64,000 bases of DNA from Candidatus Aminicenantes bacterium (GTDB lineage: Bacteria; Acidobacteriota; Aminicenantia; Aminicenantales; UBA4085): NCBI GenBank assembly GCA_026393855.1, contig JAPKZJ010000011.1, positions 5,761-69,760 of the forward strand. The letters are read 5' to 3'. Below are positions 18,714 through 31,863 of this stretch, piece after piece. Below the pieces are notes generated by a model. That model saw nothing but the letters and a program-made list of their open reading frames with translations, was not told the DNA's origin and searched no databases. The translations under genes were made by a program, and so were the position numbers. Within the stretch, counting starts at the first letter, position 1; every line of letters starts with the position of its first letter.

Positions 18714-20168
18714 TTACAGTCCGACTTCGCGGTTGAAGTCCGCGATTAGCTTCTCGAAGGCGCCGATCTCGCCCGTGAACATCTCCTGCCAGAACTCGGG
18801 CTGCCACTGGGCGTTCAGATCCTCGATGGCCTTGCCCTGCTGCTCGACCCAGGTGAAATACTTGAGATTGTGGATCGCCTTGCGGTCGTGATAATTCAGT
18901 TCCTTGAACCAGTCGGCCCCCTGGTGCCCGATCACCGCGGCGTGATCCCGGGCGGCGTCTATTTCGCGGTAGGCGCCTTGGCTCTGGCGCAGCTCCTCGA
19001 GGCGTGAGCGATAGAGGTCGACCGAATCGGTGAAAATGGTGACGATCACGTCGTCCGTGCCCAGCTCGAAATAGCCCGCCGTTTTGATCGCGGCCAGCGT
19101 GTTGCAGATCCCCGAGATGCCCAGGAGCGACAGGCTCCGGCATTCGGCCTCCGCCATCCCCAGGCCCTGCAGATAGCGATGGCCGGCCTCTTCATTGAAG
19201 AGCCGCAGGAGGCGCATGCAGTCTTCGTCGTCGATCGCGGCTATGGCGTCGGTAGCGCGGACGTTGTGGACCCAGGGCACATGCTTGTCGCCGATGCCCT
19301 CGATGCGATGGCCGCCGAAGCCGTTCATGAACAGCGTCGGGCACTGCCGCGCCTCGGTGGCGACGACGCGCAATTGGGGATGGAGGGTCTTGAGGTAGTC
19401 TCCCACGGCGATGGTTCCGGCCGAGCCGGTCGCGGACACGAAAGCGGCCAGGCGGCCTCGCTCCGGTCGGTGGGCCTCAAAGACCTCCTGGGCCGCGGGG
19501 CCGGTCACTTGGTAATGGAAGATGGGATTCCCGAATTCGGCGAACTGGTTGAAGATCATGTTCAGGGGATCGGCGGCCAGCTCATTGCACTTGTCGTAGA
19601 TCTCCTTGACGTTGGACTCGCAGCCCGGTGTCGCGATAACCTCGGCCCCGATCTCGCGCAGCCAATCGAAGCGCTCTTGGGACATCTCTTCGGGGAGGAT
19701 GGCCACGGCCCGGCAGCCGAGCAGGGCGCAATCGAAGGCGCCGCCGCGGCAGAAGTTGCCGGTCGACGGCCAAACCGCCTTATGGATTTCCGGATCGAAC
19801 TCGCCCGAGGCCAGCCGCGGCACGAGGCAGCCGAAGGCGGCCCCGACCTTGTGAGCCCCGGTGGGGAAGTGCTTGCCGACCAGGCCGACGACGCGCGCTT
19901 TGATTCCGGTGACGGCGGGCGGCAGCTCCAGGGCGTTGACGGGGCCGTAAAGCCCCGTTTTCACATCGTTCTTCCAACTGATGCGGTAGAGATTGAGCGG
20001 ATGGACTTCGTTCATGCCCAGGCCGGGCAGTTTGGCCCGGATGGAGGCGGGTATTTTTTCCGGGTTGCGGAGCTCCGCAAACGAAGGGATGACGATGCCG
20101 CGCTCGCGGCAGCGGGCCGCCGTCTTGCGCCGGACCGTCTCGTCGATCTGCTTGATGATTTTCGACAT
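18714..20168 (-). CDS. PLP-dependent fold-type II enzyme (cysteine synthase / lyase-like) with long C-terminal extension
   Basis: Probable start MSKIIKQIDE at 20168 (the ORF track extends to 20441 across the ygeW 3' end). Putative PLP-lysine block FPTGAHKVGAAF. 484 aa. Last gene of the 13-kb operon. Confidence 0.65.
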   Translation of the reverse strand: MSKIIKQIDETVRRKTAARCRERGIVIPSFAELRNPEKIPASIRAKLPGLGMNEVHPLNLYRISWKNDVKTGLYGPVNALELPPAVTGIKARVVGLVGKHFPTGAHKVGAAFGCLVPRLASGEFDPEIHKAVWPSTGNFCRGGAFDCALLGCRAVAILPEEMSQERFDWLREIGAEVIATPGCESNVKEIYDKCNELAADPLNMIFNQFAEFGNPIFHYQVTGPAAQEVFEAHRPERGRLAAFVSATGSAGTIAVGDYLKTLHPQLRVVATEARQCPTLFMNGFGGHRIEGIGDKHVPWVHNVRATDAIAAIDDEDCMRLLRLFNEEAGHRYLQGLGMAEAECRSLSLLGISGICNTLAAIKTAGYFELGTDDVIVTIFTDSVDLYRSRLEELRQSQGAYREIDAARDHAAVIGHQGADWFKELNYHDRKAIHNLKYFTWVEQQGKAIEDLNAQWQPEFWQEMFTGEIGAFEKLIADFNREVGL

Positions 20169-20176
20169 CGGGTACC

Positions 20177-21370
20177 TCAACGGATGCGCGGCGTCGCCGC
20201 GTCGGCCAGTCGGAGCAGCGACGCTTGCGGGTCCGGCATGCGAGTCAGGAAGATCAGGGCGGCGATGACAAAGGGCTTCCACGATGCTTCGTGGTAGGTC
20301 TCCAGCCGGTAGCGCTCGAAGACCTCCCGGCTCACTTCCCCCTGCGGGCAGGACACGCCGCTGATGTCCGCCGGGAGACAGTGCATATAGAGGGCCGATC
20401 CGCCGGCCGTGCGCTTCATCAGGGCTTCGTCGCAGGACCACGCTTTATGGCGGGCATTCTCTTCCAGGCCTTCTTTTTCGAGCGCCTGCAGTCCCGCCCG
20501 GTCCGTGTTTCGCAGCAGCTCGGTGCGCCGCTTGGCGATTCGCATCGGCGTCCAGGACTTGGGATAGACGATCTCGGAGCCGTCGAAGGCCTCGGCCATG
20601 TTGTGGCTGACCCGGAAGGCGCCTCCGGCGGAGGCAGCCCCCCGCTTGGCTTCGTCCATCACCTCGGGCAGCAGGTCGTAGCCTTCGGGATGGGCCAGCG
20701 TCACGTCCATCCCCAAGCGGGGGAGGAGGCCGATCAGGCCCTGCGGCACGGAGAGAGGCTTGCCGTAGCTCGGCGAGTAGGCCCAGGAAATGACGAACTT
20801 CCGGCCGCGTAGCCCGGCGAGCCCGCCGAAGCGCCGTTCGAGATGCAGCAGATCGGCCAGCGTCTGGGTTGGATGGTCGATGTCGCACTGCAGGTTGATC
20901 ACCGACGGGCGCCGCGAAAGTGCGCCCTGCTCGTATCCCTCTTGCAGGGCCGCGGCGAAGTCGCGCATATAGCGATGGCCTTCGCCCAGGTAGATATCGT
21001 CGCGGATGCCGACGGCCTCGGCCAGGAAAGAGATCATGACGGCCGTCTCGCGGGTCGTCTCGCCGTGGGCGATCTGGGACTTGGCCTCGTCCAGGTCGGA
21101 CAGCGTCAGGCCGAGCGCATTGGCGGCCGAAGCGAAGCTGAAGCGGGTGCGGGTAGACTGGTCGCGGAAGATCGAGACGGCCAATCCCGTGTCGAAGAGA
21201 CGCAGCGACCGGCCCGCTTCGTGGAGCGTCCGCAGGCATTGGGCCGTGAGCAAGATCGAGCGGATCTCTTCGAGCGAATGCTCCCAAGTCAGCAGAAAGT
21301 CGCGATTGGCGAGATCGGCCTGCAGCCCGGCCAATTCGCGCAGTCTATCGTCTAATGTCGGTTCGTTCAT
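20177..21370 (-). CDS. ygeW: YgeW-type knotted carbamoyltransferase
   Basis: 397 aa from MNEPTLDD (21370). Near-colinear similarity to my recollection of E. coli YgeW: FLLTWE, SIFRDQSTRTRFSF, KSQIAHGET, NLQCDIDHPTQ, WAYSPSYGKPLSVPQG, MHCLPADISGVSC and YHEASWKP. Confidence 0.9.
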   Translation of the reverse strand: MNEPTLDDRLRELAGLQADLANRDFLLTWEHSLEEIRSILLTAQCLRTLHEAGRSLRLFDTGLAVSIFRDQSTRTRFSFASAANALGLTLSDLDEAKSQIAHGETTRETAVMISFLAEAVGIRDDIYLGEGHRYMRDFAAALQEGYEQGALSRRPSVINLQCDIDHPTQTLADLLHLERRFGGLAGLRGRKFVISWAYSPSYGKPLSVPQGLIGLLPRLGMDVTLAHPEGYDLLPEVMDEAKRGAASAGGAFRVSHNMAEAFDGSEIVYPKSWTPMRIAKRRTELLRNTDRAGLQALEKEGLEENARHKAWSCDEALMKRTAGGSALYMHCLPADISGVSCPQGEVSREVFERYRLETYHEASWKPFVIAALIFLTRMPDPQASLLRLADAATPRIR

Positions 21371-31741: not shown

Positions 31742-31826
31742 GCCTGCCTTCCGTTTTTGGCGGCCGCCCCCATTCGATCCGTCCGGCGGCGGGTCCGGGG
31801 ACGCTTCAGAGTCCCGCATCGCCGCG

Positions 31827-31863
31827 GGACAAGCATAGATTCCGCCCTCGGGTATGTCAAGGA
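31827..31863 (-). promoter_or_regulatory. Promoter/operator block of the 13-kb purine operon (twin of 15757-15793)
   Basis: On the minus strand: TCCTTGACAT, 9 nt, CGGAATCTATGCTTGTCC. That gives -35 TTGACA (31860-31855), a 17-nt spacer and -10 TATGCT (31837-31832). Confidence 0.6.

Follow-up and report, generated by a model that had tools for sequence, protein, structure and literature searches.

A nine-gene operon in a Candidatus Aminicenantes genome is predicted to encode a variant of reductive uric-acid degradation with two distinctive PLP enzymes

A 64,000-nucleotide stretch of contig JAPKZJ010000011.1 from a Candidatus Aminicenantes bacterium (assembly GCA_026393855.1, positions 5,761 to 69,760; hereafter the window) carries a compact set of nine minus-strand genes, g1 to g9, laid out as a single operon (Table 1). 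This operon probably specifies a variant of reductive uric-acid degradation, the 2,8-dioxopurine pathway, in an uncultured organism, which we take to be a strict anaerobe from the glycyl-radical enzyme with its activase and the tungsten-type aldehyde:ferredoxin oxidoreductase (AOR) encoded in the window. What is new in this system is the apparent recurrent displacement of the diaminopropionate ammonia-lyase YgeX by a ThrC-like pyridoxal 5′-phosphate (PLP) enzyme (g4), a tightly conserved CysK-like accessory PLP enzyme (g9), a fused reductase of the dihydropyrimidine dehydrogenase (DPD) type (g1), and an environmental and phylogenetic spread much wider than that found in published surveys.

The whole reductive uric-acid pathway was reconstituted in 2025 with homologues from E. 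coli and Clostridium (Li et al. 2025, PMC12507026; Liu et al. 2025, bioRxiv 10.1101/2025.04.24.650524, the latter given as Nature Microbiology 10:2291 in a later preprint). Urate is converted to 2,8-dioxopurine by XdhD-YgfM or XdhAC (Li et al.; Liu et al.), which is reductively dearomatized by YgfK or the PydA-like UacX and opened by SsnA to ureidomethyl-hydantoin (Li et al.). HyuA then produces 2,3-diureidopropionate, and YgeW removes one ureido group as carbamoyl phosphate, from which YqeA makes ATP (Li et al.; Liu et al.). YgeY releases 2,3-diaminopropionate (Li et al.; commentary PMC12990295), and YgeX converts this to pyruvate and ammonia (Li et al.; Liu et al.). An earlier reading of the window from its sequence (the original prediction) had tied the operon to the ygeW/ygeY/ssnA/hyuA neighbourhood of E. 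coli and to anaerobic urate breakdown, and the gene identities reported below bear this out. Its view that most of the individual reactions were unassigned has been overtaken by these two studies, which assigned them all, and since the pathway has already been reconstituted the operon cannot serve, as was proposed, to define the core chemistry.

Family calls were scored in bits against the curated NCBIfam cut-offs, and domains were assigned with Pfam. Three genes score above the cut-offs of their families: g8 with 594.5 bits for the YgeW model NF005538 (cut-off 453), g3 with 500.5 for the YgeY model NF009555 (cut-off 321), and g2 with 481.2 for the SsnA model NF005540 (cut-off 444) and 456.0 for TIGR03314, whose cut-off of 455.5 was barely passed. 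The predicted colinearity with the E. coli proteins was seen as full-length alignments, with identities of 57% for g8 and YgeW, 52% for g3 and YgeY, 35% for g2 and SsnA (435 aa) and 29% for g5 and HyuA (450 aa). By these measures g2 is SsnA, g3 is YgeY and g8 is YgeW, and their reactions can be predicted from those of their homologues. The best models for g5 are those of dihydropyrimidinase and D-hydantoinase, with 247 bits for TIGR02033, under the cut-off of 393, and the metal-ligand motifs of cyclic amidohydrolases are complete (HVH59, FKFY149, VHAE183, HIVH237 and TDH316). Family and context point to g5 as the predicted enzyme of the HyuA step.

The g1 protein has the layout of a full DPD, combining a PreT/GltD-like N-terminal part, with two [4Fe-4S] motifs and an FAD/NAD(P)H domain, and a C-terminal part with a PreA-like FMN domain and two further [4Fe-4S] motifs; its 16 cysteines lie in four CxxCxxC-type groups. 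It scores 204 bits for PRK12771, 184 for PreA (residues 427–820; cut-off 335) and 130 for YgfK, and with a YgfK cut-off of 835 it is, on its sequence, not a YgfK. Of the four family models that the original prediction had named as a check, those for YgeW, YgeY and SsnA are passed and that for YgfK is not. An 828-aa homologue of g1 lies directly upstream of SsnA in two related loci (L001 and L085; loci are identified by such numbers throughout), and wherever a DPD-like reductase was found in related clusters it occupied this position, mirroring ygfK-ssnA in E. coli. In C. difficile, the PydA homologue UacX replaces YgfK and was shown to reduce 2,8-dioxopurine (Li et al.). From this precedent and its context, g1 is predicted to be a 2,8-dioxopurine reductase, a functional analogue of YgfK or UacX. 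A different protein fills the reductase slot in L003 (4117–6099) and in one Logan contig, where a 660-aa product with only faint 4Fe-4S Pfam matches is encoded between SsnA and a fused XdhD-like gene; a partial match to YgfK occupies this slot in L009 and L015, which are related to L003, and the 660-aa protein could be a YgfK-type reductase that is truncated or has diverged.

The g6 protein contains three molybdenum-cofactor domains and g7 the Fer2_2 and Fer2 domains. The best model for g6 is pucD with 455 bits against 784, all cut-offs being missed, and its identity is 30% to E. coli XdhA and 28% to E. coli XdhD. The operon encodes no FAD subunit for this pair, and a molybdenum enzyme without an FAD subunit is also known from C. 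difficile (Li et al.). From family and operon position, g6/g7 is predicted to be the enzyme that converts urate to 2,8-dioxopurine (DOPDH), the counterpart of XdhD or XdhAC.

With these assignments, the operon would work as follows. Nucleoside-catabolism genes and a neighbouring FAD-containing xanthine dehydrogenase (XDH) would supply urate, and the flavin-less g6/g7 would turn it into 2,8-dioxopurine using a donor that is probably of low potential, e.g. ferredoxin. The fused NAD(P)H/FAD/FMN/4x[4Fe-4S] reductase g1 would dearomatize the product, g2 would open the pyrimidine ring of the reduced compound to ureidomethyl-hydantoin (the reaction described by Li et al.), and g5 would open the hydantoin ring to give 2,3-diureidopropionate. 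Phosphorolysis of one ureido group by g8 would yield carbamoyl phosphate, with carbamate kinase encoded elsewhere or absent, and hydrolysis of the remaining one by g3 would give 2,3-diaminopropionate. In place of YgeX, g4 would then form pyruvate and ammonia, and g9 would carry out an extra step on diaminopropionate or albizziin that lies outside the E. coli and Clostridium schemes. The steps of g2, g3 and g8 follow from homology above curated cut-offs, those of g1, g5 and g6/g7 from family and context, and those of g4 and g9 from comparative genomics only.

The g4 protein is a fold-type II PLP enzyme (Pfam PALP) with an N-terminal CxxC...CxxC zinc ribbon. Its predicted structure is ThrC-like, with PDB matches at TM-scores of 0.82–0.86 on the target and 32–36% identity, and among its structural neighbours, besides threonine synthases, are serine racemases and dehydratases of threonine or serine. 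Both g4 and g9 retain the PLP-lysine and phosphate-loop motifs. All five solved threonine synthases (5/5) carry the arginine of an NPxR[IL]EGQKT motif that aligns to Thr210 of g4, and this threonine is invariant across 38 members of the g4 family. The arginine (R160 of the T. thermophilus enzyme) reportedly binds the substrate phosphate. Judged by this substitution, g4 does not appear to be a genuine threonine synthase. Nor does it resemble YgeX in sequence: the alignment with the E. coli protein covers 70 aa only at 26% identity, and diaminopropionate ammonia-lyase models are not among the best 25 of its 39 profile matches, whereas E. coli YgeX, as a positive control, scores 638–697 bits on the same models.

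The distribution of g4 nevertheless suggests a YgeX-like role. Independent searches with g4 arrived at the clusters that those with g9 had found, and 17 of the 19 loci with SsnA, YgeW and g9 also carry g4. One exception (L015) is truncated by the contig end at the very place at which g4 stands in its relatives. The other, the untruncated L024 from Thermoanaerobaculia, lacks g4 and carries instead a diaminopropionate ammonia-lyase (305 bits, cut-off 276). The strongest argument for g4 as the stand-in for YgeX is this complementarity, and we put the proposal that g4 is a YgeX analogue at slightly under an even chance. Two sister contigs, L094 and L107, have the order ygeW-arcC-ygeX without g9.

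The g9 protein, also of fold-type II (Pfam PALP), has a CysK/cystathionine β-synthase (CBS)-like core flanked by conserved N- and C-terminal helical extensions of ∼70–95 aa that are not present in CysK. It falls far below the cut-offs of the corresponding models, with 112 bits for cysK (cut-off 351), 109 for cysKM (344) and 88 for CBS (510). Its AlphaFold2 model (pLDDT 88) has its best PDB matches in CysK and CBS, with a TM-score of ∼0.8 on the target and 26–30% identity; the PDB fold search gave no match for the extensions and no closer functional relative for either g9 or g4. An alignment with E. coli YgeX was not obtained at 1e-5, and diaminopropionate ammonia-lyase models were not among the 12 profile matches of g9 (12/12). 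The family is tightly conserved, with 57–92% identity across phyla and a mean column identity of 75%, and it occurs in at least 595 species-representative genomes, mostly metagenome-assembled genomes (MAGs) labelled groundwater, lake, fen or palsa. Clustering at 50% leaves about one full-length representative, a handful of sequences at 36–50% identity and many fragments, and an exhaustive search of the representatives with g9 gave no intermediate link to a characterized enzyme.

Co-occurrence was counted within 10 kb of g9 in 41 loci of at least 20 kb. Some other pathway gene was present in 38 of these: the molybdenum hydroxylase large subunit in 28, SsnA in 27, g4 in 25, YgeY in 22, YgeW in 21 and YgeX in one. 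The neighbours of three orphan g9 homologues (L045, L058 and L072) were unrelated (APH, GHMP kinase, CBM96, CpXC and poly(A) polymerase) and gave no functional hint. Enzymes of the CysK/CBS type perform α-aminoacrylate chemistry on β-substituted alanines, compounds that include diaminopropionate and albizziin, and g9 probably acts on one of these in a predicted accessory step. On balance we favour the view that g4, g9 or both supply the terminal PLP chemistry of the pathway. More tentatively, the two may together form a terminal branch of urate degradation that has no counterpart in E. coli or Clostridium. Such a branch might be a two-enzyme stereospecific route, with a racemase or D- and L-specific lyases replacing the bispecific YgeX, or might involve β-elimination or replacement directly on albizziin or diaminopropionate to give urea, serine or cysteine. 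Our literature search found no paper in which clusters with ssnA or ygeW are connected with genes of the ThrC-like or CysK-like type. The original prediction had spoken of two unrelated PLP enzymes in place of YgeX and of a possible alternative branch. Two such enzymes are indeed present, although they share a fold type, and a departure at the terminal PLP step or steps recurs across many phyla; it is narrower than had been suggested.

The gene order recurs in other genomes, a point that the original prediction had proposed to check. All nine genes were called in identical order in L001. In the closest relative, a Candidatus Aminicenantes MAG (L004), g2 to g9 lie in the same order with 78–91% identity and the 10-kb flank ends just before g1; this locus also carries the flanking PRAI, LOG and XDH genes seen in the window. 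The g2–g9 order was also found at 36–70% identity in Ignavibacteriota (L016) and Cloacimonadota (L033, and L049 from Ca. Syntrophosphaera), where the 10-kb flank again ends before g1. An eight-gene version lacks only the hydantoinase (L010, L018, L021 and L032), and a seven-gene version lacks both the hydantoinase and YgeY (L041 and L085, 6146–17654) and keeps the reductase, SsnA, g4, the Mo/FeS subunits, YgeW and g9. A YqeB-like gene follows g9 in L006, L016, L028 and L030, and L024 carries YqeB plus YqeC. The g4 and g9 families co-localize with the pathway in at least ten phyla, and the variant was seen in Aminicenantes/Acidobacteriota, Ignavibacteriota, Bacteroidota, Verrucomicrobiota, Cloacimonadota, Elusimicrobiota, Myxococcota and others. 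Some close homologues of g9 and g4 are labelled Limnocylindrales. In four g9 clusters (L017, L053, L057 and L065), the carbamoyltransferase is only 32–36% identical to YgeW and often stands beside carbamate kinase; it may represent a further variant of the ureido-cleavage step.

The roles of the two PLP enzymes could also be exchanged, with g9 replacing YgeX as a diaminopropionate or albizziin β-lyase and g4 being auxiliary, e.g. a D-/L-diaminopropionate racemase or an enzyme for the other stereoisomer. We regard this arrangement as unlikely, though it carries appreciable weight. The order ygeW-g9-ygeY-arcC in L003, L009 and L015 mirrors ygeW-ygeX-ygeY-(hyuA)-yqeA of E. coli and puts g9 in the ygeX slot, 21 of 80 loci have YgeW as the immediate upstream neighbour of g9, the CysK/CBS core fits chemistry on β-substituted alanines, and the racemases and dehydratases among the structural neighbours of g4 would suit an auxiliary role. 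However, the L024 lineage has g9 beside a bona fide YgeX in the absence of g4, and YgeY is immediately followed by g4 in nine loci, a position that fits g4 taking the product of YgeY. That both are instead an ordinary biosynthetic threonine synthase and cysteine synthase that merely lie inside the operon appears very improbable indeed. It is true that g4 passes the broad thrC model TIGR00260 (185 bits, cut-off 167) and that public sources name the homologues of g4 and g9 'threonine synthase' and 'cysteine synthase', but g4 lacks the threonine synthase arginine and falls short of its closest model, PRK08197 (229 against 303), the g9 score and extensions are foreign to CysK, and the association of both families with the pathway holds across phyla.

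A further reading, which retains a part of the original prediction, is that the operon serves mainly or additionally in reductive uracil/thymine catabolism, with g1 as dihydropyrimidine dehydrogenase, g5 as dihydropyrimidinase and g3 as an M20-type β-ureidopropionase. The DPD architecture and PreA match of g1, the best models of g5, and the presence of cdd, deoA, udk and tdk in the window would all agree with this. Yet g1 falls short of the PreA cut-off and g5 of that for dihydropyrimidinase, g3 matches YgeY at the equivalog level and is no generic M20 enzyme, and SsnA, YgeW and the molybdenum hydroxylase would be superfluous for a pyrimidine route. The reductive pyrimidine pathway (PydA/DPD, PydB, PydC) does share its logic of reduction, ring opening by an amidohydrolase and carbamoyl removal, and g1 and g5 are homologous to PydA and PydB; it is the additional molybdenum hydroxylase, SsnA, YgeW and PLP enzymes that argue for a purine as the substrate. 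A PydA homologue can act on 2,8-dioxopurine, and g1-type reductases are found directly upstream of SsnA in related clusters. The pyrimidine reading has no specific support, and we consider it quite improbable.

Several observations weigh against urate degradation by the scheme set out above, in addition to the g9 position just described. None of g1, g5 and g6/g7 reaches a specific family cut-off, so that only their context points to particular substrates. The hydantoinase, YgeY or both are missing from some related clusters (L085, L010 and L018), so that the scheme may differ beyond its last step; the missing reactions are either provided by genes elsewhere or circumvented by the PLP enzymes. 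The exchange of g4 for YgeX is seen in a single lineage, consisting of L024 and its close relatives L090, L101 and L112, and because a metagenome scan with the L024 YgeX-like protein returned close relatives only, the coexistence of g9 and YgeX counts as one evolutionary event. All loci were chosen through g9, and the need for g9 is thus not judgeable from them. In the window itself, tblastn at 1e-8 found no homologue of ygeX, arcC/yqeA, yqeB, yqeC or mocA, and neither selD nor a carbamate kinase or regulator turned up in Pfam scans of its likely genes. All gut strains with the cluster carried the selenium genes, and some of them encode carbamate kinase elsewhere in the genome (Liu et al.). 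Apart from that of mocA, these absences had been noted in the original prediction, together with that of an FAD subunit; the window does encode an FAD-containing subunit, that of a second XDH (Table 1).

Compared with E. coli, the operon has orthologous YgeW, YgeY and SsnA, a HyuA-like amidohydrolase and a molybdenum hydroxylase, and its intermediates should match those of E. coli as far as 2,3-diaminopropionate. The E. coli genes are split between two clusters (ygeW-ygeX-ygeY-hyuA-yqeA and ygfK-ssnA-ygfM-xdhD), whereas here they form one 13-kb operon. A fused DPD-type reductase stands here in place of YgfK, and a split Mo/[2Fe-2S] enzyme without FAD contrasts with an enzyme that has the FAD subunit YgfM. 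YgeX, YqeA, YqeB/C, MocA, the transporter and the YgeV regulator of the E. coli system are not in the window, and g4 and g9 are extra. The clostridial pathway (XdhAC/DOPDH in C. sporogenes, UacX and UacY in C. difficile) is similar in its flavin-less molybdenum enzyme, its PydA-related reductase and a separate XDH feeding urate. The first two of these features suggest, as in that pathway, an electron supply other than NADH for the first step. Unlike the clostridial system, g1 keeps the FAD/NAD(P)H half that is missing from UacX, YgeW is kept rather than UacY, YgeX is absent and selenium-cofactor genes are not nearby. Among PLP enzymes, g4 and g9 share fold-type II with YgeX/DpaL (NF006058, TIGR03528) and occur in clusters that would otherwise need the YgeX reaction, yet neither belongs to that family. 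From ThrC, whose fold it shares, g4 differs by a threonine for the invariant arginine and by the N-terminal zinc ribbon; from CysK/CBS, whose core it shares, g9 differs by the helical extensions at both ends and by its low scores. The genes around g4 and g9 belong to purine catabolism rather than to amino-acid biosynthesis.

These findings bear on how the pathway is recognized. Annotation pipelines would mislabel both PLP genes, and a published network analysis (Li et al.), in which all of PF00291 served as the marker for YgeX, cannot separate g4 and g9 from YgeX. In a published MAG survey, which relied on identity cut-offs to seven proteins of C. sporogenes, YgeX among them, the pathway was found enriched in Bacillota and in host-associated habitats; a preprint on Prevotella copri uricolysis gives no gene-cluster information. 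Many genomes that bear the variant come from groundwater, lake and peat samples, and reductive fermentation of urate and purines may be a common route of nucleic-acid recycling in anoxic environments. If g4 and g9 do form a terminal branch, the number of species genomes with g9 would make the pathway far commoner outside animal guts than published surveys suggest. The two enzymes should be tractable, and their substrates could settle the questions that a commentary lists as open, namely which ureido group YgeW takes first and the stereochemistry of the intermediates (PMC12990295).

Table 1. Positions of the operon genes, putative transcription signals and other features in the window.
Feature	Coordinates	Strand	Length	Description
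g1	29255–31741	−	828 aa	DPD-architecture fused reductase
g2	27923–29254	−	443 aa	SsnA amidohydrolase
g3	26701–27906	−	401 aa	YgeY M20 hydrolase
g4	25465–26691	−	408 aa	ThrC-family PLP enzyme
g5	24094–25464	−	456 aa	Hydantoinase/dihydropyrimidinase-like cyclic amidohydrolase
g6	21860–24112	−	750 aa	Molybdenum hydroxylase large subunit
g7	21381–21863	−	160 aa	[2Fe-2S] small subunit of g6
g8	20177–21370	−	397 aa	YgeW knotted carbamoyltransferase
g9	18714–20168	−	484 aa	CysK/CBS-like PLP enzyme
Promoter-like site	31832–31860	−		TTGACA-17-TATGCT, sigma-70-like, 10/12 consensus matches; consensus match only
Terminator-like hairpin	18707–18727	−		Hairpin with T-rich tail over the g9 stop codon; pattern match only
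XdhAB-type XDH, Mo subunit	12041–14395	−	784 aa	Pfam MoCoBD domains
XdhAB-type XDH, [2Fe-2S]+FAD subunit	14308–15762	−	484 aa	Pfam FAD_binding_5, CO_deh_flav_C, Fer2_2
LOG-family gene	15871–16452	+		Pfam 'possible lysine decarboxylase'; nucleotide phosphoribohydrolase type
TrpF-like (PRAI) gene	16483–17139	+
cdd-deoC-AOR-deoA-HAD	31946–37372	+		Apparent gene string, upstream of and divergent from the operon
AOR	33232–35004	+		Tungsten-type, directly after deoxyribose-phosphate aldolase
Adenosine deaminase homologue	39585–41387	−	up to 600 aa	Length stop-to-stop
Outer-membrane β-barrel	42201–45356	+		TonB-dependent receptor type, carboxypeptidase-regulatory-like N-terminal domain
Radical-SAM/SPASM protein	53483–54637	−
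Glycyl-radical enzyme and activase	55326–58741	+	908 aa (enzyme)	Pyruvate formate-lyase-like; activase of radical-SAM type, overlapping

The open reading frame coordinates agree with the single compact unit of the original prediction, nine minus-strand genes over 18714–31741 with gaps of 0–16 nt or overlaps of 4–19 nt; the junctions from g1 to g9 are, in order, 0, +16, +9, 0, −19, −4, +10 and +8 nt, and the 4-nt overlap is that of the g7 start with the g6 stop. The g1 start was placed at the ATG at 31741, which has GGAAGG ahead of it and gives the same length as the L001 and L085 homologues. The genes are bracketed by a promoter-like site upstream and, at the far end, a terminator-like hairpin. 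The former is ∼90 nt upstream of the g1 start codon, in a ∼200-nt divergent region common to g1 and cdd, and accounts for the end coordinate of 31863 given in the original prediction; the region has three promoter-like sites, against 1.4 ± 1.2 in shuffled sequence. Terminator-like sites number 11 against 9.2 ± 2.4 expected, so that the hairpin alone is weak evidence. An Rfam scan of the whole window matched no riboswitch or other RNA family, and thus no RNA-based regulation was found. The notion of a horizontally acquired island was rejected, as the G+C content of the operon (0.671) is in line with that of the window (0.648).

The operon is part of an island of nucleic-acid salvage and catabolism, with XDH, the divergent cdd, deoC, AOR and deoA, and beyond these nupG, adenosine deaminase, udk, purine nucleoside phosphorylase, deoB, tdk and 5′-nucleotidase. 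The second XDH is downstream of the operon on the same strand, and the same pair of genes follows the operon in L004. Its subunits score 787 bits for TIGR02965 (cut-off 849) and 324 for TIGR02963 (cut-off 467), and it is predicted to feed the pathway by converting hypoxanthine or xanthine to urate; the pairing of XDH with DOPDH is known for C. sporogenes (Liu et al.). The AOR gene directly after that of deoxyribose-phosphate aldolase suggests that acetaldehyde derived from deoxyribose is oxidized to acetate with reduction of ferredoxin. More speculatively, this ferredoxin, or the reducing power of XDH, could drive the flavin-less g6/g7.

The TrpF-like gene between the second XDH and the operon has counterparts in L004 (12339–12989), L010 (a Kapaibacterium MAG; 16114–16737) and L087 (2668–3417), and adjoins the urate cluster in all four. 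With a score of 131 against 215 it reaches none of the NCBIfam TrpF cut-offs, and the vicinity holds no further trp genes; its product may act in nucleoside catabolism as an isomerase of sugar phosphates or ribosylamines. The LOG-family gene, also present in L004, lies between XDH and the operon as well. Two PIN-domain toxin-like genes and a DUF6404 gene (17595–18026, 18186–18599 and 37661–38023, all on the plus strand) flank the catabolic genes, and the 15.8–18.7 kb stretch has a G+C content of 0.571, under that of the rest of the window. In the adenosine deaminase homologue the best A_deaminase stretch covers residues 372–564, which leaves a long N-terminal part without explanation unless translation in fact starts further downstream. 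The glycyl-radical enzyme and the radical-SAM/SPASM protein are encoded further along the window (Table 1). The large outer-membrane protein encoded within the nucleoside island could import nucleic-acid breakdown products.

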